Shown piece by piece: positions 2,834-55,087 of a stretch of DNA of 64,000 nucleotides. Origin of the DNA: Candidatus Omnitrophota bacterium (GTDB lineage: Bacteria; Omnitrophota; Gorgyraeia; Gygaellales; Profunditerraquicolaceae). Position 1 is the first letter of the stretch; each line of letters begins with the position of its first letter. The DNA lies in the NCBI GenBank assembly GCA_035402765.1, contig DAONDX010000005.1, positions 7,304 to 71,303 of the forward strand, read 5' to 3'. The position numbers were made by a program, and so were the translations under genes. The notes under the pieces were generated by a model. The model was not told where the DNA came from and did no database searches. It was given only the letters and a program-made list of their open reading frames with translations.

Positions 2834-5071
2834 ATGAAAAGAATTCTATTGTTTATCCTGCCCATATTAATCTTAGTTGCGCTTGGATTTGCTATTTCGG
2901 GCGTTATGCAAGCTCGTTTCACAGAAGATAAGCTTATGGATGATTTAAAAAGAAAAGCCAGGTCTGTGGATGAAGGCTTGGAATTATCAGCTAAGTATAT
3001 TCTTATTAACAATGATTTAAAGCAAGCCAACCGTTTAGTTGATAGCTTCCAGAAAAGAGAAAGGCTGCAAGGTTGTGTTATTTACGATAAAGATGGCCAG
3101 ATATTAGCGATTACTGAAAGATTCTCTGATTTTAAACAGAAAGAAAGGCCATATTTGAAAGATATCCTATCTTCTAAATCGCCGCGAGGAGCGCTGGAAA
3201 AGTTTAAAGAATACTCTGTATATAGCTACATTTTACCTGTCTTAAATGATGATGAGAGTGTATTAGGAATGGTAGAGGTAGTTTATGACACATCGTATAT
3301 GTTTACTACTTTAACTGAATTATGGAGAAAAATAAGCGTTACCTCCATTGCGCTTATCTTACTAATAGTTTTAACTGCCTTATTAATTCAGAGACAAATT
3401 TTTATTGTTCCGGTACGTAGGCTAACGCAGTGGTTTACGCATTTTCAAAGAGGAGAAACTGATAAATTGCGGCCGTTTGCTGAAAAAGGTGAATTTGGTA
3501 AGTTGATTAGTGAGGTAGAGCAGGTTGCCTTAAGCATTAGAGTAGCGCGTCGTACCATATCAGATGAAGCGCATGTGCGCTTGCAAAAAGAAGATCTTTG
3601 GACTGAAGCCAAGCTTAAAGATCTAATCCACGCAAAATTAGGAGAGAATTCTTTATTCGTGGTTTCTAATCGAGAGCCGTATATGCATGTTTTCGATGAG
3701 AATTTGGGTAAGGAGACATGCATAAGGCCGGCAAGTGGCGTGGTCACTGCGATACATCCAATACTTTCAGCTTGCGGTGGGACCTGGATTGCGCATGGCA
3801 GTGGTAATTCTGATAAAAAATTCGTTAACTCTAAAGATAAACTCGGCGTGCCTCCTGAGGATAACCGGTATATTCTTAAGAGAGTTTGGCTTAATAAGGA
3901 AGAAGAACAAGGTTATTATTATGGTTTTTCCAACGAAGGGTTATGGCCCTTATGCCATAATACACATACGCGGCCGGTTTTTAAAGAATCTGACTGGCGT
4001 ATGTATAAAGAAGTAAATCAGAAATTCGCAGACAGTATTTTAAATGAACTACCGGTAAGCAGCCCGTTTATATTTATCCAAGATTATCACTTTACTCTTT
4101 TGCCAAAGATGATCAAAGATAAACGGCCGGATGCAAAAGTAGCTTTATTCTGGCACATACCTTGGCCTACCCCTGAAGCTTTTATGATTTGTCCTTATCA
4201 GAATGAAATTTTAGAGGGCATGTTAGGATGTGATTTGATCGGTTTTCATGTTCAGAACCATTGCAACAATTTTTTGGATACCGCCAACCGTTTGCTTGAG
4301 TCACGCGTAGATACTGAAAAATTCAGTGTTGTGCGTTCGGGTAAGGAAACTTTTATCAGGGCTTTTCCTATCAGTATTGACTCGCATATTGGCGATGGTT
4401 CATTTAGAGTCGATCCTGTCAGACAGGTAGAGAAACTTAAGAAGGAGTTTGAGCTGAATGATGAAACTATTGTCGTGGGGGTGGATAGAATCGATTATAC
4501 TAAAGGCATAGTCGAGAAGATTTTAGCCGTCGATAGATTTTTAGATAAGTATCCTGAATATAAAAAGAAATTTGTTTTTATACAACTAGCCGCACCAAGC
4601 CGAACACATATTAAGCGTTATCATGATTTAATCGGGGAAATCGATGAATTAGTTGAAAAAATTAACTGGAAACATATAGATGGAAACTGGAAGCCAATAA
4701 TCTATCTAAAAAAGCATTTTTCTCAAGATGATATCCAGCCTTATTATAGGCTTGGTGATATTTGTATTGTTAGTTCGCTGCATGATGGCATGAATTTGGT
4801 GGCTAAAGAGTATGTTGCAGAGAAGGATGACTTATCCGGGGTGTTAATCTTAAGTCAATTCACCGGGGCAGCGCGAGAGCTTACCGATGCTATTTTGGTT
4901 AATCCATATTCAATTGAAGAGTTTGCGGATAGTATAAAATTGGCCATTCAGATGCCCAGGGAAGAGAAGGTGAGGCGTATGGTAAATATGCGTAAGGTGA
5001 TAGTGGAAAATAATATTTACCGCTGGGCAGCTAACATTATCAATGAGATGGTTGCATTAAAACAAATTTAA
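2834..5071 (+). CDS. otsA: membrane sensor (2 TM + periplasmic domain + HAMP) fused to trehalose-6-phosphate synthase (GT20)
   Basis: N-terminal ~260 aa: TM1 (ILLFILPILILVALGFAI), a periplasmic region, TM2 (ISVTSIALILLIVLTALLI), and a HAMP-like amphipathic segment (IVPVRRLTQWF...GEFGKLISEVEQVALSI). The C-terminal part aligns to OtsA motifs: LFVVSNREPY, GGTW, EGLWPLCH, VNQKFAD, IQDYHFTLLP, FWHIPWP, CDLIGFHVQ, VDRIDYTKGI, DGMNLVAKEYVA...LSQFTGAA...ILVNPY. Confidence 0.8.
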   Translation: MKRILLFILPILILVALGFAISGVMQARFTEDKLMDDLKRKARSVDEGLELSAKYILINNDLKQANRLVDSFQKRERLQGCVIYDKDGQILAITERFSDFKQKERPYLKDILSSKSPRGALEKFKEYSVYSYILPVLNDDESVLGMVEVVYDTSYMFTTLTELWRKISVTSIALILLIVLTALLIQRQIFIVPVRRLTQWFTHFQRGETDKLRPFAEKGEFGKLISEVEQVALSIRVARRTISDEAHVRLQKEDLWTEAKLKDLIHAKLGENSLFVVSNREPYMHVFDENLGKETCIRPASGVVTAIHPILSACGGTWIAHGSGNSDKKFVNSKDKLGVPPEDNRYILKRVWLNKEEEQGYYYGFSNEGLWPLCHNTHTRPVFKESDWRMYKEVNQKFADSILNELPVSSPFIFIQDYHFTLLPKMIKDKRPDAKVALFWHIPWPTPEAFMICPYQNEILEGMLGCDLIGFHVQNHCNNFLDTANRLLESRVDTEKFSVVRSGKETFIRAFPISIDSHIGDGSFRVDPVRQVEKLKKEFELNDETIVVGVDRIDYTKGIVEKILAVDRFLDKYPEYKKKFVFIQLAAPSRTHIKRYHDLIGEIDELVEKINWKHIDGNWKPIIYLKKHFSQDDIQPYYRLGDICIVSSLHDGMNLVAKEYVAEKDDLSGVLILSQFTGAARELTDAILVNPYSIEEFADSIKLAIQMPREEKVRRMVNMRKVIVENNIYRWAANIINEMVALKQI

Positions 5072-8835: not shown

Positions 8836-8855
8836 TTAATTTGGTATACAAGGGT

Positions 8856-8945
8856 TCGGAAGTTTTTTCTTCCGGAGGATCTAGATGGTCGGGCCGCCAT
8901 CTTGCATGTTAGTGCAGGATGGCGTTTTTGTTTTATAAGGATAAA
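8856..8945 (+). promoter_or_regulatory. conserved leader/attenuator element, copy 2
   Basis: Hairpin CGGAAG...CTTCCGG. GGAGGA RBS. Mini-ORF 8885-8938 encodes MVGPPSCMLVQDGVFVL, with its first 18 nt identical to copy 1 (ATGGTCGGGCCGCCATCT). Hairpin CCATCTTGCA/TGCAGGATGG is followed by GTTTTTGTTTT. Confidence 0.55.
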
Positions 8946-10566: not shown

Positions 10567-11188
10567 ATGGATAGAAGTATTATTCCGCTTTTTCTATTTG
10601 TTCTGGGCTATATTTTATTCGTGGCGTTTCCCGGAAGGATGTCTTTGGTTGTATAATTGCAGCCAGGTTACTTTCAATAACCCGACTGTTGTCCTTTCTT
10701 GGGGCCATGAATTTTGTAAATTGGAATGTCATGGGAATTTTCGTGGGCACATTAGCCGTAGCGGATGTTTTTATGGAAAGTAAGGTGCCTGTGGTTATTG
10801 CTGAGATTATTGTTGATAAAGCCCATAATACTGCTTGGGCAATTTTATTTTTGTGTGTTTTACAGTTTTTACCTCTGCGTTTGTGGACAATATTCCTTTC
10901 TTAGTAGCTATGTTATCTGTGGCCATTTAGATGGCTAGTAAACTTAATGTAAGCCCTTCATTGTTTCTTTTTGGGATACTTATTGGTGCAAGTTTAGGAG
11001 GCGATATTACACCGATCGGAGCTTTGGCTAATATTGTTACCTGTGGTTTACTTAAAAAAGAGGGATATATATTTAAGTTTAAAGATTTTATGAAAATTGG
11101 AATTCGTTTTACTTTTGCCGCTGTAGCTGCCGCGTATTTATTTGTTTGGTTCATTTGGAGGCCACGATTTTCTTATTGTCTGCCATAG
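10567..11188 (+). pseudogene. degraded ArsB/NhaD/CitMHS-type anion permease (frameshifts plus internal deletion)
   Basis: Three frames together encode an N-terminal part (IIPLFLFVLGYILFVAFPG; NFVNWNVMGIFVGTLAVADVF...AILFLCV; SAFVDNIPFLVAMLSVAI in a shifted frame) and a C-terminal part (GGDITPIGALANIVTCGLL...) of a ~420-aa permease. The middle ~220 aa are missing. Confidence 0.55.
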
Positions 11189-11363: not shown

Positions 11364-11392
11364 TTGATATGTCGGGGTATTACACCTGTAAT
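11364..11392 (+). promoter_or_regulatory. sigma-70-like promoter of the candidate sRNA
   Basis: TTGATA, 17 nt, TGTAAT. Confidence 0.35.
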
Positions 11393-11398
11393 TAAGCT

Positions 11399-11562
11399 AA
11401 TATATTTAGAGAGGTTTCCCCTTGGCCTATCCGAGTGGGACCCTTAAATTTCCCTCATTTGCGGATAAGAAATTTATCCCGGGTGAAGTGAGGGATAGCA
11501 TAAAACACAAGTAAGCCTAAAGGCTATTGATTGGAAACGATCAATAGCCTTTATATTTGTTT
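11399..11562 (+). ncRNA. candidate small RNA (promoter + nested hairpins + intrinsic terminator)
   Basis: Nested inverted repeats TCCCTCA...TGAGGGA enclose GGATAA-N5-TTATCC. The transcript ends in the strong terminator at 11521-11562. No ORF with an RBS is present. Confidence 0.3.
11521..11562 (+). terminator. rho-independent terminator
   Basis: AGGCTATTGAT / ATCAATAGCCT 11-bp stem with a 7-8-nt loop, then TTTATATTTGTTT. Confidence 0.6.
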
Positions 11563-11616: not shown

Positions 11617-11644
11617 TTGACAAAAAAATATTAAATGTTATACT
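11617..11644 (+). promoter_or_regulatory. consensus sigma-70 promoter upstream of amtB
   Basis: TTGACA, 16 nt, TATACT, with an A-rich UP-like tract upstream. Confidence 0.6.
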
Positions 11645-11649
11645 TTTTC

Positions 11650-11665
11650 TTGACAGTGATGTCAA
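11650..11665 (+). promoter_or_regulatory. perfect palindromic operator candidate at the predicted TSS
   Basis: TTGACAGTGATGTCAA (6-4-6 perfect inverted repeat) immediately downstream of the -10. Confidence 0.4.
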
Positions 11666-11676
11666 AGAAGTAAAGA

Positions 11677-11758
11677 GACAAAGATGCCCCGGGAACTATC
11701 TGGGGTTTTTCTATTTTTCAGGGACAAAGATGCCCTTTTTTAAAAGCAGAGATGCTTT
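11677..11758 (+). repeat. direct repeats GACAAAGATGCCC (two copies) plus palindrome AAAGCAGAGATGCTTT
   Basis: Copies at 11677-11689 and 11724-11736. The palindrome is at 11743-11758. Each is followed by a T-rich run. Confidence 0.5.
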
Positions 11759-11786
11759 CGAAAAAGGGTTTTATTTTTTTAAAGAC

Positions 11787-11830
11787 AGAGACGTCTTCAA
11801 TCTAACAGAAAGAAGTCGTCTCTTTTTTTT
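11787..11830 (+). terminator. hairpin + U8 intrinsic-terminator-like structure directly upstream of amtB
   Basis: AGAGACGTCTTC...GAAGTCGTCTCT (11/12 complementary) followed by TTTTTTTT. Confidence 0.5.
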
Positions 11831-11845
11831 GGGACGGGAAAGGCA
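11830..11845 (+). promoter_or_regulatory. sigma-54-like -24/-12 element
   Basis: TGGGACGGGAAAGGCA versus consensus TGGCACG-N4-TTGCA (GG and GC correctly spaced). It lies only ~4 nt upstream of the annotated ATG, so the true amtB start may be the downstream ATG at 11882. Confidence 0.3.
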
Positions 11846-11848
11846 GGA

Positions 11849-13078
11849 ATGATAAATTCGGGAGATACAGCGTGGGTTTTAATGTCGGCGGCTTTAGTTT
11901 TGTTAATGACTCCGGCTTTGGCGTTCTTTTATGGCGGGATGGTCAGGCGAAAGAATGTTTTGAGTGTTTTAATGCAGTGTTTTATTGTAATGTGCGTTTT
12001 AAGCCTGCATTGGGTATTAATCGGTTATAGCTTATCTTTTGCCCCGGCAAAAGGATTTTGGGGAGGGCTGCAGTGGTTTGGTTTAAACGGAGTAGGTTTA
12101 GAGCCATATGCCGATTATGCCGGAACGATTCCTCACCAGGCATTTATGATCTACCAGTGTATGTTTGCGATCATCACCCCGGCTTTAATTATTGGGGCGT
12201 TTGCAGAAAGGATGAAATTTTCCTCTTTTCTGGTATTTACACTACTGTGGGCTACTTTGGTATATAACCCTTTATGCCACTGGGTTTGGGGTGTTGGAGG
12301 CTGGTTAAGGAATCTGGGGGCGTTGGATTTTGCCGGAGGCACTGTGGTACATATCAATGCCGGAATTGCTGCGTTGGTGACTGCAATAATATTAGGTAAG
12401 CGGGTTAATCTCGATAAAAATATTCCTACTCCTCATAATATGCCGTTAGTAGTTTTGGGCACGGGTCTATTGTGGTTTGGCTGGTTCGGGTTTAATGCCG
12501 GAAGCGCCCTGGCTGCTAATGGTTTAGCGGTTAATGCCTTTGTGGTGACCAATACTGCTGCTGCCGCTGCGGGTTTAAGCTGGGCGTTAATTGAGTGGAT
12601 GCGTAATGGTAAGCCGACAATTTTCGGTGTTTGTTCAGGAGCAGTTGCCGGATTAGTGGCAATTACTCCGGCGGCTGGTTTTGTCAGTGTGATTCCCGCA
12701 ATTATTATCGGATTGTTAGTCAGCGTGTTTTGTTTTGCCGCGGTTACCATAATTAAGCCAAAATTAGGTTATGATGACTCTTTGGATGCTTTTGGCGTGC
12801 ATTGTATCGGCGGTATCTGGGGCGCTTTAGCAACCGGGTTATTTGCTTCTAAATTAGTTAATCCTGCCGGTTCAGACGGGTTATTTTTTGGTAATCCCAA
12901 ACAACTATTAATCCAGCTGACTACTGTTTTAGTTACGATTATTTATACTCTGATTGTGACGCTGATAATTTATAAGCTGGTCGACTTGTTCATGGGGGTG
13001 CGGGTAAAAAAAGATGAAGAGCTTATCGGATTAGATCTTACTCAGCACCATGAACGGGCCTATACCGTATTGGAATAA
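11849..13078 (+). CDS. amtB: ammonium transporter
   Basis: DTAWVLMSAALVLLMTPALAFFYGGMVRRKN, 11 TM helices, conserved His pair region, typical Amt length. Confidence 0.9.
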   Translation: MINSGDTAWVLMSAALVLLMTPALAFFYGGMVRRKNVLSVLMQCFIVMCVLSLHWVLIGYSLSFAPAKGFWGGLQWFGLNGVGLEPYADYAGTIPHQAFMIYQCMFAIITPALIIGAFAERMKFSSFLVFTLLWATLVYNPLCHWVWGVGGWLRNLGALDFAGGTVVHINAGIAALVTAIILGKRVNLDKNIPTPHNMPLVVLGTGLLWFGWFGFNAGSALAANGLAVNAFVVTNTAAAAAGLSWALIEWMRNGKPTIFGVCSGAVAGLVAITPAAGFVSVIPAIIIGLLVSVFCFAAVTIIKPKLGYDDSLDAFGVHCIGGIWGALATGLFASKLVNPAGSDGLFFGNPKQLLIQLTTVLVTIIYTLIVTLIIYKLVDLFMGVRVKKDEELIGLDLTQHHERAYTVLE

Positions 13079-13087
13079 GGAGGAAAG

Positions 13088-13429
13088 ATGAAACTGATTA
13101 TCGCAATAATTCAACCTTCGAAATTAGAAGAAGTCAAAGAAGAGCTTTATAAACAAGAGATTAACCTGATTACGGTCAGTGAAGTTTTGGGGCATGGCCG
13201 TCAGAAAGGGATTACCGAGGTCTACCGCGGCGCGAAAGAAAGCGGCAATCTGCTAAGAAAAATCCGGCTGGAGATCGCGGTAAACCAGAATTTCGTTGAA
13301 CCGACAATTAAGGCCATTGTTAAAGGCGCTAAAACCGGGGAGACTGGGGATGGCAAGATTTTTGTTTTGGATTTAGAAGAATGTGTCCGTATCCGGACAG
13401 AAGAACGCGGCTCGGTTGCAATCGGATAA
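13088..13429 (+). CDS. glnK: nitrogen regulatory protein P-II (GlnK type, linked to amtB)
   Basis: 113 aa. T-loop [15 protein letters not shown] with the conserved Tyr. Located directly downstream of amtB. Confidence 0.9.
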
Positions 13430-13466
13430 ATTTTGATAAACTAAATAATAATAGAGAGGAAAAAAG

Positions 13467-15662
13467 ATGAGCATAAGGCAAAAAGTTCTATTCAAGATTA
13501 AAAGCATAGCATTAGACAAAAATAATTCTCCTGAAAAAGTTTCCAGTTATTTCGGCGAAAATACCTTTAGCTTAGAAACGATGCGTAAGCATATTTCTAA
13601 AACTACTTTTTTAGCATTTAAATCTTGGATGTCGGAAGGGAAAACCATAAGTATGAGCCAGGCCAATGAGATTGCCGATGCGATGAAAGAATGGGCAGTT
13701 TCAAAAGGAGCCACTTATTATACCCACTGGTTTCAGCCAATGACCGGGCTTACTGCAGAGAAACACGATAGTTTTATTTCTTTTGTCCAGCCGAATAAAG
13801 TAATTGAAAAATTTTCCGGAAATAAACTGATCCAGGGAGAGCCGGACGCATCGAGTTTTCCTTCCGGAGGCATCCGGGCTACTTTTGAAGCCCGCGGTTA
13901 TACCGCCTGGGATCCTTCAAGCCCGGCATTTATTATTGAAAGCCTGCTCGGTAAAACTCTTTGCATTCCGACGATATTCATCTCTTATAATGGCGAAGCT
14001 TTGGATAAAAAACTGCCGCTTTTACGTTCTGATGAGGCGTTAAATAAAGCAGCGCTTGGTCTGTTAAAACTTTTCGGCCGGCAGGATGTAAAAAAAGTGT
14101 TTTCTACCTGCGGAGCCGAACAGGAGTATTTTTTGATCGACCGGAATTATTATAATCTGCGCCAGGATTTATTAATGACCGGGAGGACTTTAATTGGCGC
14201 CCCTTCCCCCAAGGGCCAGCAGCTGGAGGATCAGTACTTTGGGACAATTAAAGAACGGGTGGTTAATTTTATGTTTGAAGTTGCTCAGGAGGCGTATAAA
14301 TTGGGAATTCCGATAATGACCCGGCATAATGAAGTAGCGCCGCATCAGTATGAATTCGCCCCTATTTTTGAGGAATCAAATATTGCTGCTGACCATAATC
14401 AACTTTTAATGGAGTTGATGAAAAAAACAGCCCTGCGGCATAATTTAGTCTGCCTTTTGCATGAAAAACCTTTTGGCGGAATAAACGGAAGCGGTAAACA
14501 CTTAAACTGGTCGCTTTCAGATGATCAGGGTAACAATCTTTTAAATCCCGGCAAGACTCCGGAAGAAAACCTGCAGTTTTTGATAATTTTGGTGGCGGTA
14601 TTACATGCTGTGCATTCTCACGCAGATCTTCTGCGGGCAAGCGTGGCTTTAGCCGGCAATGAACACCGTTTAGGCGCAAATGAAGCGCCTCCGGCAATTA
14701 TCAGCGTATTTCTAGGCGAACAATTGGATTCAATCCTGAACATGCTTGAAAACGGCGTTAAATCCAAAGTCTCCAAACAGAATATCATGGATTTAGGAAT
14801 CGGCCGCCTGCCTAGATTTAATAAAGATATGACTGACCGGAATCGTACTTCGCCTTTTGCTTTTACCGGGGCTAAGTTTGAATTCCGCGCGGTTGGTTCG
14901 TCACAGAATATATCTACACCGATTACTATAATTAATACGATCATCGCCGAAAGCCTTGAATATGTCACTAATCAGATTAAAACAGTTAAAGGTACAGGCA
15001 AGGATTTTAATTCTGAAGTTCTAAAGGTAATCAGTAATCTGGTTAAGGAAACTAAAGCTATCCGTTTTGAAGGCAATAATTATGCCCAGGAATGGATCCA
15101 GGAAGCTCAGAAACGGGGTCTGCCTAATATCGCTTCGACCTATGAGGCGCTAGAAGCTTTTACTAAAGTTAAAAATATATCTCTTTTCGAGAAATATAAA
15201 GTTCTTTCCAAGGATGAATTGATCGCCAGATACCATATCTGGATCCATATGTATAATTTGACTTTGGAAATCGAAGCTAATACTTTAAAAGAAATGGTAA
15301 ATGCTTCGGTAGTTCCGGCAGGTTATAAATATGAGAAACTTTTGGCGCGTATTCTGCGTGAGTTGGTGGAATTGGAAAAAAGCGCCGGACTTAAGATAGA
15401 CCCGGCGGCATTAGAAGATAAGAAAACGCATTTAAGTGACGTGGTTTCGAAGATCTATTATGTCAGGCGCAATACAAATGAAATGAGTGATTTACTTGAG
15501 CAAGCTAAAAAATGCAGCAATGAAGAACGCGCTGAGTTGTATTTTAAAGAGCTCAAGCCGTTAATGGAACATATCCGCAGGCACGCGGATGAGTTGGAAT
15601 GCGTGGTGTCCGATGATACTTGGGATCTTCCCAAGTACCGTGAGATGCTGTTTATTAAATAG
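13467..15662 (+). CDS. glnN: glutamine synthetase type III
   Basis: 731 aa. HWFQPMTGLTAEKHDSFISF...KFSGNKLIQGEPDASSFPSGGIRATFEARGYTAWDPSSPAFI matches the GSIII N-terminal signature. Confidence 0.9.
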   Translation: MSIRQKVLFKIKSIALDKNNSPEKVSSYFGENTFSLETMRKHISKTTFLAFKSWMSEGKTISMSQANEIADAMKEWAVSKGATYYTHWFQPMTGLTAEKHDSFISFVQPNKVIEKFSGNKLIQGEPDASSFPSGGIRATFEARGYTAWDPSSPAFIIESLLGKTLCIPTIFISYNGEALDKKLPLLRSDEALNKAALGLLKLFGRQDVKKVFSTCGAEQEYFLIDRNYYNLRQDLLMTGRTLIGAPSPKGQQLEDQYFGTIKERVVNFMFEVAQEAYKLGIPIMTRHNEVAPHQYEFAPIFEESNIAADHNQLLMELMKKTALRHNLVCLLHEKPFGGINGSGKHLNWSLSDDQGNNLLNPGKTPEENLQFLIILVAVLHAVHSHADLLRASVALAGNEHRLGANEAPPAIISVFLGEQLDSILNMLENGVKSKVSKQNIMDLGIGRLPRFNKDMTDRNRTSPFAFTGAKFEFRAVGSSQNISTPITIINTIIAESLEYVTNQIKTVKGTGKDFNSEVLKVISNLVKETKAIRFEGNNYAQEWIQEAQKRGLPNIASTYEALEAFTKVKNISLFEKYKVLSKDELIARYHIWIHMYNLTLEIEANTLKEMVNASVVPAGYKYEKLLARILRELVELEKSAGLKIDPAALEDKKTHLSDVVSKIYYVRRNTNEMSDLLEQAKKCSNEERAELYFKELKPLMEHIRRHADELECVVSDDTWDLPKYREMLFIK

Positions 15663-15733
15663 AAATAATTCTTGGAAGCGGCGCAAAGTTTATGTTTTAT
15701 TTTGGAAAAAACTGATTAAGGATTGTGCAAAAT

Positions 15734-16114
15734 ATGATTACTATTGTGATATCCGAGTCAGATGAAGGGAAAGTTAAAGAGCTGCTGAATAAAATACTCA
15801 AGGAAGAAGGTTATGACTTATCCGAGAGTTTAGCCCAGGGGAACGTCATCCGTCTGGCCCACAGGGATAATATCCGGGATTTAGCTTTTATTAAAGACAA
15901 AGCGATTACGCTGGGAGATTCCTGGTATAGTGAAAAAAGAGGCCAATTATATAAATCAGTTTTATTTGAGATTGAGAAACCTTTGATCGAGCATGTCTTA
16001 GAACGCACCGAGGGTAATCAGCTCAAGGCCGCTAAGATCCTAGGTATGAACCGGAATACTATGCGGGCAAAGATTAAGAAATTAGGGATAGATCCTGATC
16101 AATGGAAGATATAA
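15734..16114 (+). CDS. small Fis-family HTH DNA-binding protein (NtrC C-terminal-like)
   Basis: C-terminal GNQLKAAKILGMNRNTMRAKIKKLGI is a Fis-type HTH. No receiver or AAA+ domain. ATG 15734 is preferred over GTG 15725 (RBS AAGGA). Confidence 0.55.
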   Translation: MITIVISESDEGKVKELLNKILKEEGYDLSESLAQGNVIRLAHRDNIRDLAFIKDKAITLGDSWYSEKRGQLYKSVLFEIEKPLIEHVLERTEGNQLKAAKILGMNRNTMRAKIKKLGIDPDQWKI

Positions 16115-16174
16115 TCAGGAATCTCTAAAAAAGCCGCTTTAAGCTTTAAATTAGAAATAAAAGAAGGGAGTTGG

Positions 16175-16897
16175 ATGGACCTCTCAAAGAAAATAAGCAA
16201 ATGGATTAAAGAACAGGTTGATCAGGCCGGGAAAAAAGGTATTGTGGTCGGATTAAGCGGCGGCATTGATTCTGCGGTAACCGCGGTACTCTCTAAAATG
16301 GCTTTGGAAGATAATGTATTGGGATTGATCATGCCGTGCGGTAATCAATCTCAAGATGAGAAATTGGCTCTGGAAATCGCAAAGAAATTCAGCATCCGGA
16401 CCAAGAAAATAAACTTGGCTGCTATCCATAAAGACTTAAGCACGATTCTGCCTCAAGGGAGTGCTTTGGCTATGGCTAATTTAAAGCCCAGATTGAGGAT
16501 GATGATGCTTTATTATTACGCCAATACATTAAATTATTTAGTCGCCGGCACGGGCAATAAGAGTGAACTGGCGATCGGTTATTTTACCAAGCACGGAGAT
16601 GGAGGGTGTGATATCCTTCCATTGGGTGAATTGTTAAAAACTGAGGTCAGAAGTTTGGCAAAAGATTTAAGGATTCCCGGTGTAATTATCCGCAGGCCTC
16701 CTACCGCCGGGCTTTGGAAAGGCCAGACTGATGAGGGGGAGATGGGGGTAACTTATCAAGAGCTCGATAATTGCCTTGAAGCTTTAGAACAGGGAAGGGT
16801 TCCAAAGCTTAAAGATAAAAAACTAACCAAAATAAAGTTAATGATCAAGAACTCTAAACATAAAAGGGATAAGACCCCGATTTTTAAGAAAAAATGA
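16175..16897 (+). CDS. nadE: NH3-dependent NAD+ synthetase
   Basis: PP-loop GLSGGIDSAV. 240 aa, so no glutaminase domain. Confidence 0.85.
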   Translation: MDLSKKISKWIKEQVDQAGKKGIVVGLSGGIDSAVTAVLSKMALEDNVLGLIMPCGNQSQDEKLALEIAKKFSIRTKKINLAAIHKDLSTILPQGSALAMANLKPRLRMMMLYYYANTLNYLVAGTGNKSELAIGYFTKHGDGGCDILPLGELLKTEVRSLAKDLRIPGVIIRRPPTAGLWKGQTDEGEMGVTYQELDNCLEALEQGRVPKLKDKKLTKIKLMIKNSKHKRDKTPIFKKK

Positions 16898-19800
16898 AAC
16901 CATATCATTTTCCTAATAAACAGGGGCTTTATGATCCGCAGTTTGAACACGATGCCTGCGGGGTGGGGTTTGTCTGTAATATCAAAGGAGCCCGGACTAA
17001 TGAAATTATCCGCCAGGGTTTAGAGGTTCTTAAACGGCTGGCACATCGGGGTGCCACCGGCGCAGATCCTCTGACCGGGGATGGGGCAGGTATCCTTATC
17101 CAAATACCGCATGAGTTTTTGCTGAAGGTTTGCCGTGAGATAGCCATCGATCTACCTAAAAAAGGGGATTATGGCACTGGCTTGGTATTTTTGCCTACTG
17201 ATAAAAAAGAGCAGGAGTTTTGTCAGGAAGAATACGCCAGGATTATTGCTGAAGAAAACCTCATACTTCTTGGCTGGCGTCAAGTGCCGGTAAATAATGC
17301 AACCATCGGCATTACCGCTCAACTTACTCAGCCGGCCATTCAACAAATTTTTATTGGTAAAAGCAAAGCATTAACTGATCCTCTGGCTTTTGAACGGAAG
17401 CTCTACGTAGTTAGAAGGCGGATCGAAAATTTAATCCGCAATTCAACGTTAAAGCAAAAATTATTTTTTTACATTACTAATTTATCCTGTCGTACTTTAG
17501 CTTATAAAGGCTTGTTGATGCCGCAGCAATTGGATAGTTTTTTTACGGATCTAAAAGACAGCGATATTAAAAGTGCTTTGTGTTTGGTGCATTCGCGTTA
17601 TTCTACCAATACTTTTCCTACCTGGGATTTGTCACAGCCCTTTAGGTTTCTTGCTCATAACGGAGAAATTAATACTTTGCGCGGTAACGTAAATTGGGTG
17701 AGCGCACGTGAGCGATTATTGGCAAGCGAGTTTTTCGGCGAGGATATTGAGAAAATAAAGCCGGTGATTGTGCCGGGGGGGAGCGACTCGGCGACCATCG
17801 ATAATTTTTTCGAGCTTTTAGTGCTATCCGGAAGATCTCTGGAGCAGGCGATGATGATGTTGATTCCTGCGGCCTGGGAACATGACAACCTTATGAATAA
17901 GAAACTTAGGGAGTTTTATCAATACCATGCTTGTTTTATGGAGCCTTGGGATGGCCCGGCAGCGATTGCTTTTACCGATGGCAAAAATATCGGGGCGATA
18001 TTGGATAGAAACGGGCTGCGGCCTGCCCGTTATATAGTCACTAAAAAAGATTTCGTAGTCATGGCTTCCGAAGTGGGAGTGTTGGATATCGACCCGGCAG
18101 AGATTATGATCTCCGGCCGCCTTGAGCCGGGAAAGATATTTTTTATCGATACCGAAGCTGGTTGTATTGTGCAGGATCAAGTGATAAAAGAAAGCGTGGC
18201 AAAGCATGCCCCATATGGCGACTGGAACGCGAAGAATCTTGTGGATTTGGATGATATTCTTGCAGGCAATATCCCGCAAGAGAAATCAGCGGATTTACTG
18301 CCTCTTTTAAGGGCTTTTGGTTATTCGCGCGAAGATCTTACTTTAATTATCAAGTCTATGGCTCAAGATGGCAAGGAGCCGGTGGGGTCGATGGGATATG
18401 ATACGCCGCACGCCTTTCTTTCTAAAATGCCCCGTATTTTCTATAGCTATTTTAAGCAGCTATTTGCGCAGGTGACTAATCCTCCCATTGATTCTATAAG
18501 AGAAAAACTGGTGATGAGCCTGGAAAGTTTTATCGGGCCTGCGCATAATGTCCTGGATGAGTCCAGCGCGCATGCTCACAAACTGAAAATAAAAAACCCG
18601 ATTCTTAAAAACGAAGAGTTGGAGAAAATCCGGGATATTAGTTTAAATGGATTTAGAACCAAAACCATATTTACTTTTTTTGATGCTAATTTAGGAGTGG
18701 AAGGTTTTAAGCAGGCCCTTGAGAGAATCTGTTTTGAGGCGGAGTACGCGATAGATCAAGGCTATTCATTTATTATTTTGAGTGACCGCGGAGCAGATAA
18801 AGATGCGATTGCTTTGCCTGCGCTTCTGGCGACTAGCGCGATACATCATTACCTGGTGCGTAAAACCAGCCGTTCGCAAGTGGCGATTATCGTTGAAAGC
18901 GCAGAGCCGCGGGAGGTGCATCATTTTGCTTTACTCTTTGGATACGGTGCCGATTGCGTGAATCCCTATCTTGCTTATGAAACCGTTGAATATCTTATAA
19001 AAGAGAACGAGGTTTCGCTTGACTATGAAAGCGCTTTAACGAATTACCATAAGGCTTTAACTGACGGAATATTGAAAATACTTTCTAAAATGGGGATATC
19101 GACATTGAGAAGCTACCGGGGTGCCCAGATATTCGAGGCGCTGGGTTTGGATAATGGGCTTATTGATCAATATTTTACCGGTACGGTTTCACGTATTGCC
19201 GGCGTAAATTTGGAAGGGATTGCCAATGAAACAATCCAGCGGCATCGTGAAGCGTATTGCCTAACCTCACAGCAGCGGCCTTACTTATCCAGCGGCGGGA
19301 TTTATCAATGGAAAAAAGACGGAGAGTTCCATTTGTGGAATCCGGAGAGCATTGCCGCGCTTCAAGATGCCTGTCGCGCAGATAACTATAACAAGTATAA
19401 AGAATTCGCTCTTTTGATCGATGAACAATCAAATCATCCTACAACGCTTCGGAGTTTATTTAATTTTAAGAAAGCTGAAGCAATCCCCCTGGATGAGGTC
19501 GAGCCGGTTGAGGATATTATGTGCCGGTTTGTCACCGGAGCAATGAGTTTTGGTTCCATCAGCGGCTCTGCGCATGAAACTATTGCTATTGCCATGAACC
19601 GGATCGGCGGTAAGTCTAATACGGGGGAAGGCGGCGAAGACCCTAACCGTTTTATTACTTTGCCTAACGGTGATTCCCGCAGGAGCGCGACTAAGCAGGT
19701 TGCTTCCGGAAGATTCGGGGTGACTACCAATTATTTGGTGAATGCGGATGAAATACAAATCAAGATCGCTCAAGGGGCCAAACCCGGTGAGGGCGGGCAA

Positions 19801-21426
19801 TTGCCGGGGCATAAAGTAAGTGAGATTATCGCGCGTACACGTTTTACCACTCAGGGGGTAACTTTGATTTCTCCTCCCCCGCATCATGATATATATTCAA
19901 TCGAAGATTTGGCGCAGTTGATTTTCGATTTGAAGAATGTTAATCCTTATGCGCGTGTGAGCGTCAAGCTGGTATCAGAAACCGGAGTAGGGACGGTTGC
20001 TGCCGGAGTAGCCAAAGGGAACGCGGATATGATTCTTATATCCGGAGGAGACGGGGGAACCGGTGCTTCTCCGCGTTCTTCAATACGCCATGCCGGGCTT
20101 CCCTGGGAACTGGGGGTTGCAGAAACCCATCAGACGCTGTTATTAAATAATTTACGTTCCCGGGTGCGTTTACAGACTGACGGACAGATGCGTACCGGCC
20201 GCGATGTGGCGATTGCCGCTATGTTGGGAGCTGAAGAGTTTGGTTTTTGCTCAAGCGTGTTGGTGGTGATGGGCTGCGTTATGTTAAGACATTGTCATCT
20301 TAACAACTGCTCGGTAGGTATCGCCACCCAGGATAATATTTTACAAAAGAGATTTAAGGGAAGGCCGGAATATATCGTAAATTATTTCCATTTTGTAGCT
20401 CAAGAAGTGCGTCAGATTATGAGCGCATTGGGTTTTAGGACTTTAAATGAGCTGATTGGCAGGACGGATTTGCTCGAAGTTAATACAGAAATCCTGCCGG
20501 AAAAATCCAAAGGAGTGGATTATTCGCGCATACTTTATAAGCCGGAATTGCCGGATGGTGCAAGCAGATTTTGTACTATGAAACAAGAAAATAATCTCGA
20601 TTCGGTGCTGGATAGGAAACTGATTATCTTATGCCGGGATGCTTTGGAGAAGAATAAGCCGGTTACGATAACTCAAGAGATTAATAATACTAACCGTGCA
20701 GTCGGAACAATGCTTAGCGGAGAAGTATGCAGGTCATGCGGCGATGGTGTGCTTTTAGAAGATACCATTACTTGTAAATTTAAAGGTATTGCCGGACAGA
20801 GTTTCGGCGCGTTTCTGGCTAAGGGGATTACTTTTGAATTAGAAGGGATGAGCAATGACTATGTAGGCAAAGGTATCTCCGGCGGGAAAATTATTATTTA
20901 CCCATCAACGAGGGCGCAAATTAAGCCCGATGAGAATATTATTATCGGTAATACCAGTTTTTATGGAGCTATTTTCGGTGAGGCTTACATTTGCGGGAAG
21001 GCGGGAGAGAGGTTTTGTATCAGAAACTCCGGCTTGTATGCTGTAGTTGAGGGTGTGGGTGACCATGGGTGTGAATATATGACCGGGGGCCGGGTAATTG
21101 TTTTAGGTGAAACCGGCAGGAATTTTGCCGCCGGGATGTCCGGAGGTATCGCGTATGTATATGATGAAAATAAAACCTTTAAAGAACGTTGCAATCAGGA
21201 CATGGTCAGGCTGGAGGCGGTAAAAGGTGATGATTTGGATACGATTTATCAGCTGCTGCATAATCATCTGAAGTATACCAAAAGTATAAAGGCGGAAAAA
21301 ATTATCGATAATATGCGCAAAGAACTTAAGAAATTTGTTAAGGTTATACCTATAGAATATAAGCGGATACTCGAAGGCAAGATTATCGAAGAGCAGCTGG
21401 ATCTAACGGAGAAATCCGATGGGTGA
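16894..21426 (+). CDS. gltB: glutamate synthase large subunit
   Basis: N-terminal CGVGFVCNIKG amidotransferase Cys. FMN and Fe-S domain motifs. 1510 aa. Confidence 0.95.
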   Translation: MKPYHFPNKQGLYDPQFEHDACGVGFVCNIKGARTNEIIRQGLEVLKRLAHRGATGADPLTGDGAGILIQIPHEFLLKVCREIAIDLPKKGDYGTGLVFLPTDKKEQEFCQEEYARIIAEENLILLGWRQVPVNNATIGITAQLTQPAIQQIFIGKSKALTDPLAFERKLYVVRRRIENLIRNSTLKQKLFFYITNLSCRTLAYKGLLMPQQLDSFFTDLKDSDIKSALCLVHSRYSTNTFPTWDLSQPFRFLAHNGEINTLRGNVNWVSARERLLASEFFGEDIEKIKPVIVPGGSDSATIDNFFELLVLSGRSLEQAMMMLIPAAWEHDNLMNKKLREFYQYHACFMEPWDGPAAIAFTDGKNIGAILDRNGLRPARYIVTKKDFVVMASEVGVLDIDPAEIMISGRLEPGKIFFIDTEAGCIVQDQVIKESVAKHAPYGDWNAKNLVDLDDILAGNIPQEKSADLLPLLRAFGYSREDLTLIIKSMAQDGKEPVGSMGYDTPHAFLSKMPRIFYSYFKQLFAQVTNPPIDSIREKLVMSLESFIGPAHNVLDESSAHAHKLKIKNPILKNEELEKIRDISLNGFRTKTIFTFFDANLGVEGFKQALERICFEAEYAIDQGYSFIILSDRGADKDAIALPALLATSAIHHYLVRKTSRSQVAIIVESAEPREVHHFALLFGYGADCVNPYLAYETVEYLIKENEVSLDYESALTNYHKALTDGILKILSKMGISTLRSYRGAQIFEALGLDNGLIDQYFTGTVSRIAGVNLEGIANETIQRHREAYCLTSQQRPYLSSGGIYQWKKDGEFHLWNPESIAALQDACRADNYNKYKEFALLIDEQSNHPTTLRSLFNFKKAEAIPLDEVEPVEDIMCRFVTGAMSFGSISGSAHETIAIAMNRIGGKSNTGEGGEDPNRFITLPNGDSRRSATKQVASGRFGVTTNYLVNADEIQIKIAQGAKPGEGGQLPGHKVSEIIARTRFTTQGVTLISPPPHHDIYSIEDLAQLIFDLKNVNPYARVSVKLVSETGVGTVAAGVAKGNADMILISGGDGGTGASPRSSIRHAGLPWELGVAETHQTLLLNNLRSRVRLQTDGQMRTGRDVAIAAMLGAEEFGFCSSVLVVMGCVMLRHCHLNNCSVGIATQDNILQKRFKGRPEYIVNYFHFVAQEVRQIMSALGFRTLNELIGRTDLLEVNTEILPEKSKGVDYSRILYKPELPDGASRFCTMKQENNLDSVLDRKLIILCRDALEKNKPVTITQEINNTNRAVGTMLSGEVCRSCGDGVLLEDTITCKFKGIAGQSFGAFLAKGITFELEGMSNDYVGKGISGGKIIIYPSTRAQIKPDENIIIGNTSFYGAIFGEAYICGKAGERFCIRNSGLYAVVEGVGDHGCEYMTGGRVIVLGETGRNFAAGMSGGIAYVYDENKTFKERCNQDMVRLEAVKGDDLDTIYQLLHNHLKYTKSIKAEKIIDNMRKELKKFVKVIPIEYKRILEGKIIEEQLDLTEKSDG

Positions 21427-22864
21427 GATAAGAGGTTTTTTAAAATTTGCCAGAAAAAATAATCCCAGCCGTCAGGTCTGTGAGCGGGTTAAGGATTATA
21501 ACCAGGTTGCTATTCCCAGGCTTGATGCGATAGCGCAAGAGCAAGCCGCGCGGTGTATGAATTGCGGTACGCCTTTTTGCCACTCTGCCTGCCCGATCGG
21601 AAATTATATTCCGGAGTGGAATGATTTTATGTTTCGCGGTAACTGGAAAGCAGCGCTTGCTTTGCTGGAGGCTGCGAATAACCTTCCTGAAATCACCGGC
21701 CGGTTGTGCCCGGGGTTATGCGAATATGCCTGCGTGCTGGGTTTAAATGATGACGCAATAACCATCCGCGAAAATGAACTTTCGATTATCGAATTTGGTT
21801 TTAAAAATGGCATGCTTACACCCTTATGCAAAAGCAATCCTACGGGTAAAGAAGTTGCGGTCGTTGGCAGCGGGCCGGCAGGTTTATCAGCCGCTGCGCA
21901 ATTGAATAGGGCCGGCCATCGGGTAACTGTCTTTGAAAAGGATGATGCTGTCGGAGGGATTTTACGTTACGGGATCCCGGATTTTAAGCTGGAAAAACAC
22001 CTAATCCAGCGGCGTATCGATTTATGGAAAAAAGAAGGAATTGTTTTTAAAACCGGCATTGAGGTAGGTAAAGATTACCCCGGGAAAAAACTTTTAGTGG
22101 ATTTTGATGCCGTATGCCTGGCGTTGGGCAGTCGTCAACCTCGGGATCTTCCTATCGAAGGCCGCGATTTAAAAGGGATTCATTTTGCGATGGATTATTT
22201 AACGCAATCAAATAAGCGCATTGCTGGTAAAAAAATCGAGCCGAAAGACTTAATTGACGCTAAAGGTAAAAAAGTAGTAATAATCGGTGGAGGAGATACG
22301 GGGGCCGATTGTCTAGGTACTGCGCATCGCCAAGGAGCATCCTGCGTGGTACAGATTGAAGTAATGCCGCGCCCGGCAGAATGCCGGACACAATCTTTTC
22401 CCTGGCCGAGCTATCCTTTATTGCTTAAAACTTCTTCCAGCCACCAAGAGGGGGGAGAACGCCACTGGGCAGTGCTGACTAAACGTTTTATCGGAGCAAA
22501 CGGGCAAGTTAAGAAGCTGGCGTGTGTAAGAACCGAATTCACGAAAACTGAAAGTGATAGCTGCCCGGTAATGCGTGAAATTAAGGGAAGCGAATTTGAG
22601 ATCGAGGCGGATTTAATTATTATTGCCGTAGGTTTTTTACATACATCCAGATCCGGAATCTTGACTGATCTTGATGTGGCAATCGATCAGCGGGGAAATG
22701 TAAAAACCGATGCGCTATATAAAACTTCAGTGAAAAAGGTTTTTGGCTGCGGCGATATGCGCCGCGGGCAATCTTTGGTCGTCTGGGCGATCTCAGAAGG
22801 CCGGCGTGCAGCTTATTGTATTGATACCTATCTGATGGGTAAAAGCAATTTGCCGCTTATGTAA
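21419..22864 (+). CDS. gltD: glutamate synthase small subunit (NADPH)
   Basis: Cys clusters CMNCGTPFCHSACP. Dinucleotide-binding VAVVGSGPAGLSAAAQL and IIGGGDTGADC motifs. Confidence 0.9.
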   Translation: MGEIRGFLKFARKNNPSRQVCERVKDYNQVAIPRLDAIAQEQAARCMNCGTPFCHSACPIGNYIPEWNDFMFRGNWKAALALLEAANNLPEITGRLCPGLCEYACVLGLNDDAITIRENELSIIEFGFKNGMLTPLCKSNPTGKEVAVVGSGPAGLSAAAQLNRAGHRVTVFEKDDAVGGILRYGIPDFKLEKHLIQRRIDLWKKEGIVFKTGIEVGKDYPGKKLLVDFDAVCLALGSRQPRDLPIEGRDLKGIHFAMDYLTQSNKRIAGKKIEPKDLIDAKGKKVVIIGGGDTGADCLGTAHRQGASCVVQIEVMPRPAECRTQSFPWPSYPLLLKTSSSHQEGGERHWAVLTKRFIGANGQVKKLACVRTEFTKTESDSCPVMREIKGSEFEIEADLIIIAVGFLHTSRSGILTDLDVAIDQRGNVKTDALYKTSVKKVFGCGDMRRGQSLVVWAISEGRRAAYCIDTYLMGKSNLPLM

Positions 22865-22920
22865 CGGCTCAACCTGTCAGATGCCCCGGTGTCTGGCTGA
22901 TTGCAGGAGGAGGATTTATT

Positions 22921-25551: not shown

Positions 25552-25553
25552 GG

Positions 25554-27155
25554 ATGGCCAAATACATTTTTATAACCGGCGGGGTTATTTCAAGTTTAGG
25601 CAAAGGTATAGCCAGCGCTTCGATCGGGAAAATTTTAGAGTCGCGGGGTTTAAAGGTTGCTTTGATGAAACTTGATCCTTATATCAATGTTGACCCCGGA
25701 ACTATGAACCCTTATCAACATGGCGAGGTCTATGTTACTGAAGACGGAGCAGAAACAGATCTGGATCTGGGGCATTATGAACGTTTCACGAATACGCTTT
25801 CATCAAAGTTTAATAATATAACGACCGGGCAGATTTATAACAGTGTAATCTCCAGAGAAAGGAAGGGAGATTATCTAGGTAAAACCATCCAGGTTATTCC
25901 GCACATTACCGATGAAGTGAAAAACAGGATAAAAAAATGCGCGGAGGTTTCCAAGGCGGATATTGTTATTGTTGAGATAGGCGGCACAGTGGGGGATATC
26001 GAAAGCCTGCCTTTTCTGGAAGCGGCCAGACAATTCAGGCTGGATATGGGTTATGATAATGTGCTTTATATTCATCTAACCCTGGTACCATATATTAAGG
26101 CCGCAGAAGAGGTAAAAACCAAACCCACCCAGCATAGCGTGGGTACTTTGCGCGGGATAGGGATTATTCCGGATATTTTAATCTGCCGTACGGAAAAACC
26201 GTTGTCGGAGAGTGTTAAAGAGAAGATTTCTTTATTCTGTAATGTAAAAAAAGAAGCGGTGATCGAATCCCCGGATATGGAATCAATATATCAGGTCCCT
26301 TTAGTTTTTAAAAAACAAATTCTGGATGAAATAATTTTAAGCCATTTTAAGCTGATCTGTAAGTTTTCGGATTTAAAAGAATGGGAGCATGATGTTGTAA
26401 ACAGAATGCTTAATCCGGAAAACCGGGTTACCATTGCTGTGGTGGGAAAATATATCGAACTTCAGGATGCTTATAAGTCAATATATGAAGCGCTTGTCCA
26501 TGGCGGTATCTATAATGATACTAAAGTAGAAATAAAAAAAATCGATTCTGAAATTCTGGAAAGATCCGGGATAGAAAGAATAATGCAGGGTATTTCGGGA
26601 ATTCTGGTTCCCGGAGGATTCGGCTACCGGGGGATCGAAGGCAAAATTAAAGCCGTTAAATTCGCCCGGCTGAACAAAATTCCTTTTCTGGGACTTTGTT
26701 TAGGGATGCAGTGTGCGGCGATAGAGCTGGCCAGAGATATTTGTAATTTGCCCGGGGCAAATTCCTCGGAATTTAAAAAAACAAAATATCCGGTTATCAG
26801 TTTATTGGAGGAGCAGGAGGGGGTTTCTGATTTAGGCGGAACGATGCGTTTAGGCGGCTATCCCTGTAAGATTAAAAAAAATACCCTGGCGGCTAAGGTA
26901 TATGGTAGGATGCTTATTCAGGAACGCCACCGCCACCGCTATGAATTCAATAATAAATACCGGAAAATTTTTGAGAAAAAAGGCGTGATTTTTTCCGGGA
27001 TATACCCTAAGAAAAATTTAGTTGAAATAATTGAACTGAAAGGGCATCCTTATTTTATTGCGGTACAGTTCCACCCGGAGTTTAAATCTAAACCGGATAA
27101 GGCGCATCCTTTGTTTAAAAAGTTTATCAAAGCTGCGTTAGAGAAGGCAGGATAG
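25554..27155 (+). CDS. pyrG: CTP synthase
   Basis: [25 protein letters not shown]. GATase Cys in GLCLGMQ. Confidence 0.95.
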
Positions 27156-27162
27156 AAAAAAA

Positions 27163-29887: not shown

Positions 29888-29897
29888 GAGGTTTTAA

Positions 29898-31392: not shown

Positions 31393-31430
31393 GGCCTATG
31401 ATCGCTAGTAGCGGTTGTAGGCCTTTTTAT
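31393..31430 (+). terminator. rho-independent terminator after the nitrogen supercluster
   Basis: GGCCTA...TAGGCC stem with an internal CGCTA-G-TAGCG hairpin, followed by TTTTTA. Confidence 0.45.
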
Positions 31431-55076: not shown

Positions 55077-55087
55077 TTTTTGCGCCT

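Follow-up and report, generated by a model that had tools for sequence, protein, structure and literature searches.

A probable ANTAR-type attenuation leader with three tandem terminators upstream of the amtB operon of a Candidatus Omnitrophota bacterium

The subject of this analysis is the region that precedes the ammonium transporter gene amtB in a 64,000-nucleotide stretch of contig DAONDX010000005.1 (assembly GCA_035402765.1), from a Candidatus Omnitrophota bacterium. The whole stretch is referred to below as the window, and all coordinates are window positions. The amtB start codon lies at 11849, an assignment consistent with the alignment of AmtB to its relatives, which begins at residue 1, and a purine-rich ribosome-binding region, GGGACGGGAAAGGCAGGA (11830-11848, plus strand), is found directly 5' of the ATG. 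From amtB onwards, 12 genes occupy 19.4 kb of the plus strand (11849-31268), all in the same orientation and with gaps of -17 to 62 nt. Pfam assignments identify them as amtB, glnK, glnN (GSIII), a gene for an HTH_8 protein, nadE, gltB, gltD, a PPDK_N-like gene, pyrG, carA, the N-terminal half of carB and a purF-like gene. No intergenic terminator was detected within this operon before 31393-31423, and the region upstream of amtB probably gates all 12 genes as one ammonia/glutamine unit. The operon gathers nearly all the ammonia- or glutamine-consuming enzymes found in the window, namely AmtB, GlnK, GSIII, NadE, GltBD, CTP synthase, CarA, a half-size CarB and a PurF-like amidotransferase; a further product is an 876-aa protein with a PPDK_N domain.

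Transcription towards amtB can be assigned to a sigma-70-type promoter on the plus strand (11617-11644), made of a -35 box TTGACA (11617-11622), a 16-nt spacer and an extended -10 element TGtTATACT (11636-11644), with the TG at 11636-37 and the TATACT hexamer at 11639-11644. This promoter had been recognised in the original prediction, and it matches the consensus at 11 of 12 positions. Sites with at least 11 matches are found only 6 times in the window, both strands considered, versus 2.3 expected from mononucleotide shuffles. The promoter is probably strong and constitutive, and its position predicts a transcription start at around 11650-11652.

Downstream of the promoter, the leader RNA (approximately 200 nt) carries five hairpins with six-base loops, here named P1 to P5. 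A occupies position 1 and G position 4 of every loop; in 5' to 3' order, the loop sequences are AGUGAU, AAAGAU, AAAGAU, AGAGAU and AGAGAC. The closing pair is C-G, in a clean form in four of the five hairpins. The stems are unlike each other, yet their complementarity is kept. P1 (11650-11665, plus strand) is the perfect palindrome TTGACAGTGATGTCAA and folds as uugacAGUGAUgucaa with five perfect pairs, at the very 5' end of the RNA or close to it; its folding energy with flanks is -7.4 kcal/mol. The palindrome contains TTGACA on both strands, and a promoter-like TTGACA-17-TATAAC arrangement directed away from amtB can be read on the minus strand (11665-11637); this site is probably an accident of the P1 palindrome.

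P2 (11675-11688, plus strand) is a weak hairpin, gagacAAAGAUgccc, with its loop at 11680-85 and three Watson-Crick pairs broken by two A.C mismatches. P3 (11720-11736, plus strand) is agggacAAAGAUgcccu, with 5 bp, a bulged A11724, the loop at 11726-31, the 3' arm at 11732-36 and an energy of -5.2 kcal/mol. The two are related by duplication of sequence: GACAAAGATGCCC is present at 11677-11689 and again at 11723-11735, and 16 nt are repeated if one difference is allowed. The P2 unit is a 94% copy of the P3 unit, and the single difference (A11676 versus G11722) removes one P2 pair. P2 is the least certain element of the leader. P4 (11743-11758, plus strand), the second palindrome AAAGCAGAGATGCTTT, folds as aaagcAGAGAUgcuuu with five perfect pairs, and P5 (11782-11797, plus strand) folds as aagacAGAGACgucuu, also with five perfect pairs (-3.9 kcal/mol). 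The linkers are 9 nt between P1 and P2 and 6 nt between P3 and P4, and P5 lies 23 nt downstream of P4. To evaluate the abundance of such hairpins, the 204-nt leader was compared with 5000 dinucleotide shuffles, counting structures with at least 5 perfect pairs and an A..G.. loop. Four were observed versus 0.36 expected, and the fraction of shuffles that reached this count was 0.001. The same scan detected none on the antisense strand of the leader.

The leader is also highly structured on a larger scale. Its minimum free energy fold lies below those of all 200 shuffles (z = -3.9) and consists of three stem-loops, with a U-tract after each. T1 (11686-11719, plus strand) is made of GCCCCGGG-AACUA-UCUGGGGU (11686-11706) followed by UUUUCUAUUUUU, with 8 pairs of which 5 are G-C, and has an energy of -11.5 kcal/mol. 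T2 (11733-11780, plus strand) is CCCUUUUUU(A)AAAGC-AGAGAU-GCUUU(C)GAAAAAGGG (11733-11768) followed by UUUUAUUUUUUU (11769-11780), with an energy of -19.2 kcal/mol. T3 (11787-11830, plus strand) is (A)GAGACGUCUUC...GAAGUCGUCUC(U), a stem of 11-12 bp with one U.U mismatch (11787/8-11822/3), followed by U8 at 11823-11830 (-16.3 kcal/mol). Hence, all three are stable stem-loops immediately followed by a U-rich tract, as expected for intrinsic terminators. The perfect palindrome, the repeats, the second palindrome and the hairpin-U8 element listed in the original prediction can all be read directly in the leader; T1, T2 and the loop signature common to all the palindromes and repeats had been overlooked. 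A further candidate attenuator in the 3' end of glnN (15606-15648) was rejected, as it lies within coding sequence and has no real U-tract.

Examination of the hairpins and the terminators together revealed that the two sets overlap. In each of the pairs P2/T1, P3/T2 and P5/T3, the 5' arm of the terminator overlaps the 3' arm of the hexaloop hairpin; in the case of P5, the loop and the 3' arm both lie inside the 5' arm of T3. The overlap was scored by an automatic criterion for all leader terminators, which detected it for T2 and T3; for T1, it occurs via the weak hairpin P2. Because the shared bases can pair in one structure only, hairpin and terminator are mutually exclusive in each pair. 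The energies of T1, T2 and T3 (-11.5, -19.2 and -16.3 kcal/mol) can be compared with those of their competitors P2, P3 and P5 (0, -5.2 and -3.9 kcal/mol): the terminators are much more stable, and therefore termination should be the default outcome while read-through should require stabilisation of the small hairpins. P4 is a different case, as it forms the apex of T2; nested within the terminator, it folds in both states of the leader.

Sequence differences between copies of the hairpins indicate that pairing has been under selection. The P4 unit (11736-11759) and the P5 unit (11775-11798) are duplicates with five differences, four of which make up two compensatory stem swaps, one from G-C to A-U and another from A-U to G-C; the fifth falls in loop position 6. 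The same tendency is found among related loci, which are designated by L-numbers. The leader aligns with the amtB leaders of L001 (AmtB 80% identical), L081 (76%) and L004 (75%), in which the promoter block CTTGACAAAA...TATAnT is kept. The module formed by P3 and T2 is also kept in the window and in the three relatives, with an invariant G4 in the loop and an invariant closing C-G pair. The P3-type stem is GGG/CCC in the window, GAA/UUC in L001 and GGG/UCC in L081 and L004, so that pairing is maintained. Stems that covary while the asymmetric A1/G4 centre stays constant point to an RNA helix rather than to a DNA operator. Individual elements are also shared: the 5' arm of P2, gagac, is identical to that of the L001 hairpin gagacAUAGUUgucuu; L001 and L082 have leader hairpins with the P1 loop AGUGAU; and an AGUGAU hairpin equivalent to P4 sits at the apex of T2 in L001. 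The leader has a single other copy, in L161, which is identical and hence uninformative on variation. A BLAST search with the leader against a plasmid collection gave no match.

The arrangement of hairpins and terminators recurs in these relatives. L081 has three tandem leader terminators, all of them overlapped by an A..G.. hexaloop hairpin. In L001, one of two leader terminators is overlapped, and the other shows a G1 variant together with the apical AGUGAU hairpin. The single leader terminator of L004 is overlapped. In L002, an Omnitrophota metagenome-assembled genome, leaders of this type precede nadE, glnB-amtB-glnK and glnN. Altogether, overlap was detected in 11 of 14 leader terminators of L001, L081, L004, L002 and L174, which are nearest relatives picked by inspection and not blind, versus 10 of 110 other terminator-like hairpins of the window (9%), a difference with a binomial probability of approximately 1e-9. 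The leaders in the neighbourhoods of L168-L179 likewise have TTGACA promoters, A1/G4 hexaloops and overlapping terminators. Other hexaloops found in relatives are AUUGAA, AACGAG and AUAGUU, and about four canonical dual-hairpin motifs with strict stems were detected among these loci.

Hexaloops of this kind are known substrates of ANTAR-domain proteins. In the main text of Ramesh et al. (2012, PMC3369931), the substrate is described as a pair of hairpins with hexanucleotide loops bearing A1 and G4, stems of at least 3 bp and a short linker (5-12 nt in eut), whose second hairpin overlaps an intrinsic terminator. The A1/G4 hexaloop is also given as the recognition feature by Walshe et al. (2022, PMC8934654), who found that an ANTAR dimer engages hexaloops one at a time and redefined the minimal site as a single hexaloop. 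In the window, all five hairpins combine an A1/G4 hexaloop with a stem of at least 3 bp, although P2 has merely three interrupted pairs. In its loops, its stems and their overlap with terminators, the leader thus has the RNA-side properties of an ANTAR target.

The GAF-ANTAR architecture is among the most abundant for ANTAR proteins, and proteins of this kind are encoded beside similar leaders in relatives. A query with an ANTAR consensus retrieved 11 open reading frames (ORFs) from the related loci that were fetched, and Pfam confirmed the 10 that were submitted. In L081, a GAF-ANTAR gene ends approximately 470 nt upstream of amtB. In L002, a GAF-ANTAR gene heads the nitrogen cluster, and its product is 47% identical to that of L081. 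REC-ANTAR genes were found near amtB in seven further loci. A profile built from the L081 and L002 GAF-ANTAR proteins retrieved 5269 relatives at E <= 1e-20, mostly of about 242 aa, many of which are labelled Candidatus Omnitrophota or Omnitrophica by their sources. The family is present in the clusters of L168-L179 that contain glutamine synthetase (GS), nadE, P-II and amtB genes, including the nitrogen cluster of L174; the order in these neighbourhoods is aminotransferase, GS, GAF-ANTAR, nadE, P-II, amtB, P-II, GS.

Taken together, these observations make it likely that the region is an ANTAR-type attenuation leader with three terminators, located upstream of the amtB operon. The proposal in the original prediction of a riboregulatory leader with terminator and anti-terminator options for the nitrogen operon was therefore right in outline. 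From the features of the RNA and the gene neighbourhoods of relatives, we infer the class of protein that acts in this genome, its binding to the hairpins, the signal and the direction of the regulation. In the model that we propose, the sigma-70 promoter would begin the RNA at about 11650. If unaided, the nascent transcript would fold into T1, T2 and T3, and most transcripts would end before amtB, releasing RNAs of about 60, 125 and 180 nt. Alternatively, P2, P3 and P5, with their C-G-closed A-N-N-G-N-N hexaloops, would capture the 5' arms of the terminators, P2 acting as antiterminator of T1, P3 of T2 and P5 of T3. P1 and P4 would adjoin these antiterminators, and P1 may serve as the recruitment hairpin of module 1. 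Under nitrogen limitation, an ANTAR-domain RNA-binding protein would bind the hexaloops and keep P2, P3 and P5 closed; the terminators would then be blocked, and transcription would proceed into amtB-glnK-glnN and the nine further ammonia- or glutamine-using genes. Three attenuators in series would keep the basal level very low and make the response steep. By analogy with the relatives, the cognate protein would most likely be a GAF-ANTAR protein encoded elsewhere in the genome.

Several observations weigh against this interpretation. No ORF with an ANTAR domain was found in the window, either by a phmmer search of every ORF of 60 aa or more with an ANTAR consensus or by Pfam scans of 40 ORFs; phmmer alone covered six ORFs of the minus strand (49266-55987). 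Nor did an ANTAR gene appear in the flanks, which comprised approximately 5.4 kb upstream (identical sequence) and approximately 10 kb downstream of the window. A profile search for the GAF-ANTAR protein of this genome led to two candidate clusters with a source pattern similar to that of the window; both came from other samples, and the link failed. On the RNA side, P2 does not fold by itself (0 kcal/mol), and as a consequence T1 may be just partly relievable or act as a fixed damper. P5 appears to lack a partner hairpin inside the 5-12-nt linker range of EutV. Module 2 is reversed with respect to the canonical model: the upstream hairpin, P3, is the one that overlaps T2, and the downstream hairpin, P4, is the T2 apex. 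The choice of the relatives by inspection has been mentioned above. Lastly, the closest relative with upstream sequence, L137 (1-667; AmtB 89% identical), is preceded by an unrelated GC-rich sequence that contains several long complementary stretches and in which hexaloop/terminator modules were not found. This observation indicates that the leader is not universal even among close relatives and has been swapped between them.

Part of this evidence can also be read in favour of an attenuation leader of another kind, in which the hexaloops are read by a non-ANTAR protein, a small molecule or the ribosome, or in which the three terminators make up an unregulated damper on a strong promoter. The lack of an ANTAR gene in the window and its flanks, the poor quality of P2 as a hairpin and the absence of a canonical partner for P5 all agree with such a scenario. 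So does the result of a search with Rfam 15, a collection that includes the glutamine riboswitch and the PyrR site: the leader matched no family at gathering score (best sub-threshold E = 0.06-0.3), and Rfam has no model with which the motif could be scored formally. A PyrR-site match of 26 bits, below the gathering score of 54, might seem suggestive, as pyrG, carA and carB belong to the operon; the match vanishes, however, when the boundaries are changed, the AUUGAA, AACGAG and AUAGUU loops of the relatives are unlike the PyrR site, and the Pfam scans of 40 ORFs revealed no PyrR-like ORF in the window. The weak PyrR, SpR14 and sau-5971 matches obtained with gathering and permissive thresholds were discarded as terminator-shaped noise. 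No conserved multi-helix aptamer is seen across the aligned leaders. In the literature, the combination of an A1/G4 hexaloop and a closing C-G pair is a feature specific to ANTAR targets (PMC3369931, PMC8934654), and leaders like this one lie beside GAF-ANTAR genes in relatives. We therefore regard a non-ANTAR reader or a simple damper as unlikely, if still the most serious competitor of ANTAR control.

The two remaining alternatives place the control at the DNA level, and both derive from the original prediction. One is that the palindromes and repeats are operators of a dimeric transcription factor, with a repressor site at +1 and activator sites farther downstream; the factor might be the HTH_8 protein of the operon. 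A perfect 6-4-6 palindrome does lie at the predicted start site, a classic position for a repressor operator, and the operon includes a gene for a small HTH_8 protein, as does L002 after GSIII. However, the half-sites differ among copies (TTGAC, GGGAC, AAAGC, AAGAC), and what is conserved is the non-palindromic A..G.. centre. The differences are compensatory for pairing, both between the P4 and P5 units and among the orthologous P3 hairpins, and the motif is found on the sense strand only. Furthermore, the sites lie downstream of the promoter, in the transcribed leader, and are placed where they can compete with terminators, a position for which a DNA site would have no reason. The palindrome at +1 is better described as one of five hairpins with covarying stems and an invariant A1/G4 centre, and nothing ties the Fis-like (HTH_8) protein, which had been proposed as a binder, to these hairpins. 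An operator function for the whole set is accordingly very improbable; for P1 alone it is harder to dismiss, even though P1 bears the loop signature of the other four hairpins. The other alternative divides the region into a sigma-70-driven small RNA gene of about 180 nt, ending at 11830, and a sigma-54 promoter at 11830-11845 that would drive amtB, with the repeats as activator sites. Terminated leader RNAs of about 180 nt are indeed expected, as by-products of attenuation rather than as the output of a dedicated gene. The sigma-54-like element TGGGACGGGAAAGGCA exists and has GG and GC at the correct -24/-12 spacing, but it is a match at chance level: it shows 3 mismatches to the 16-nt consensus TGGCAC-N5-TTGCA (or TGGCAC-N5-TTGCW), and sites of this quality are rarer than expected by chance in the window (99 versus 133). 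The element lies 4 nt from the ATG and shares bases with the Shine-Dalgarno region, so that a start site about 12 nt past the GC would fall inside amtB. Homologous leaders lack the element, and a consensus scan revealed no sites for enhancer-binding proteins. The earlier statement that the region has no NtrC, NtcA or TnrA consensus holds in a scan that included TnrA/GlnR. We consequently rejected the sigma-54 promoter as a fortuitous match lying on the ribosome-binding site, and give hardly any credence to the two-unit arrangement.

ANTAR control of nitrogen genes has precedents. According to the main text of Ramesh et al., the ANTAR motif is found upstream of genes for P-II proteins, ammonium transporters and glutamine and glutamate synthases, sometimes several times per transcription unit, and Desulfotomaculum acetoxidans has at least 13 attenuators in six nitrogen transcription units (PMC3369931). 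The leader described here resembles those regulons in the presence of the motif before nitrogen genes and of more than one attenuator per transcription unit. It differs in that an Omnitrophota-like lineage is not among the examples cited in that main text, and in that the genes are joined in a single 12-gene operon behind one leader. The same study stated that no GAF-ANTAR protein had been characterised (PMC3369931). In Geobacter sulfurreducens, the ANTAR response regulator GnfR was shown to bind RNA and to affect premature termination at nifH, and glnK and amtB have terminator-like upstream leaders with a conserved GnfR site, CAGGCAANGGCGCC (Ueki and Lovley 2010, PMC2995071). The GnfK/GnfR system resembles the window in several respects: amtB and glnK carry terminator-like leaders, the ANTAR protein relieves termination under nitrogen limitation, as proposed here, and CAGGCAANGGCGCC is a GGC/GCC hairpin with an A1/G4 hexaloop. 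However, the Geobacter promoters are RpoN-dependent and activated by GnfL/GnfM, whereas the window promoter is a consensus sigma-70 promoter and control seems to be exerted by attenuation alone. In addition, GnfR is a REC-ANTAR protein while the window regulator is probably GAF-ANTAR, and loop and stem sequences differ.

The canonical dual-hexaloop antiterminators are the eut leaders of Enterococcus faecalis, which respond to EutV. Like the window leader, they show A1/G4 hexaloops on short stems, a hairpin 3' arm that serves as terminator 5' arm, a weak antiterminator that needs the protein, and several terminators per regulon. The eut linkers are 5-12 nt long, and those of P1-P2 (9 nt) and P3-P4 (6 nt) are within this range. 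Linker length matters for EutV, as a 20-nt extension abolished antitermination in vitro (PMC8934654). The differences concern the architecture and the signal. The eut terminators are spread along the operon, whereas the window has three in tandem in a single 5' leader; in module 2 of the window, unlike in eut, the overlapping hairpin is upstream and the second hexaloop is at the apex, and P5 is apparently single. EutV responds through a phospho-receiver and serves ethanolamine use, while the window regulator would probably be a GAF protein devoted to nitrogen assimilation. NasR/nasF of Klebsiella and AmiR/amiE of Pseudomonas provide examples of ANTAR proteins with a non-receiver sensor, as is probable here, whose target is an A1/G4 hexaloop hairpin that precedes a terminator in the leader (PMC3369931). 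They have a single terminator, however, and their sensing involves a NIT domain (NasR) or the partner AmiC (AmiR) in nitrate assimilation and in amidase synthesis, respectively.

Additional features were observed in the vicinity of the leader. The HTH_8 protein of the operon (15725-16114, plus strand; 129 aa) has a C-terminal Fis-type HTH_8 domain and approximately 80 N-terminal residues without assignment. Its gene lies directly after GSIII both in the window and in L002 (10355-10798), a conserved synteny that extends to amtB-glnK-glnN-HTH_8 and that, like the nearest AmtB relatives, agrees with an Omnitrophota origin of the window. Immediately 5' of the amtB promoter, the segment 11410-11565 (plus strand) folds into three hairpins with a minimum free energy of -61.2 kcal/mol (z = -7.0). 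The last of them is a 16-bp terminator (11518-11553), and a weak promoter-like sequence, ATTACA-16-TATATT, is found at 11379-11406. No Rfam family matches this structure, in which the loops are of a type other than A..G.. hexaloops. It could represent a small RNA, or else what is left of the 3' end of a degraded upstream transporter gene. Further upstream, 10598-11188 (plus strand) contains short ORF fragments only, one of which (10931-11188, 85 aa) corresponds to the central part of CitMHS/ArsB-type transporters. Located between an Rnf-like gene and the amtB leader, it has the appearance of a decayed transporter pseudogene.

The nhaA-I RNA motif (RF03057, a riboswitch candidate) was matched twice on the plus strand above the gathering score. 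One (2720-2786, 39.9 bits) is located just 5' of a Glyco_transf_20 gene of the trehalose-6-phosphate synthase type (2834-5071). The other (8852-8902, 49 bits) is just 3' of a trehalose synthase gene that ends at 8835, and a gene for an Rnf/Nqr subunit begins at 9523. In L002, a tRNA-like cloverleaf predicted by RNAfold lies at 2330-2410, between a 94-aa ORF and a holin-like gene.

As a general principle, ANTAR control is already published for amtB, glnK and glutamine synthetase genes, and the system described here is not of a new kind. What the analysis provides is a specific, testable mechanism for a control region that seemed unclassifiable: ANTAR antitermination at three stacked terminators. 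A more ambitious, still doubtful proposal is that nitrogen assimilation of the Omnitrophota type is wholly run by the class of GAF-ANTAR proteins of about 242 aa, which would sense a metabolite such as 2-oxoglutarate or glutamine and use a variant RNA grammar, with about one hexaloop per terminator, terminators stacked two to three deep and one inverted module, here gating a 12-gene operon. The stacked and inverted modules bear on a question raised in 2022, namely whether single hexaloops suffice for antitermination. For this uncultured phylum, the finding assigns a likely class of regulator, GAF-ANTAR, to nitrogen control, and the leader together with the conserved Omnitrophota GAF-ANTAR family would constitute a clean model pair for ligand finding.

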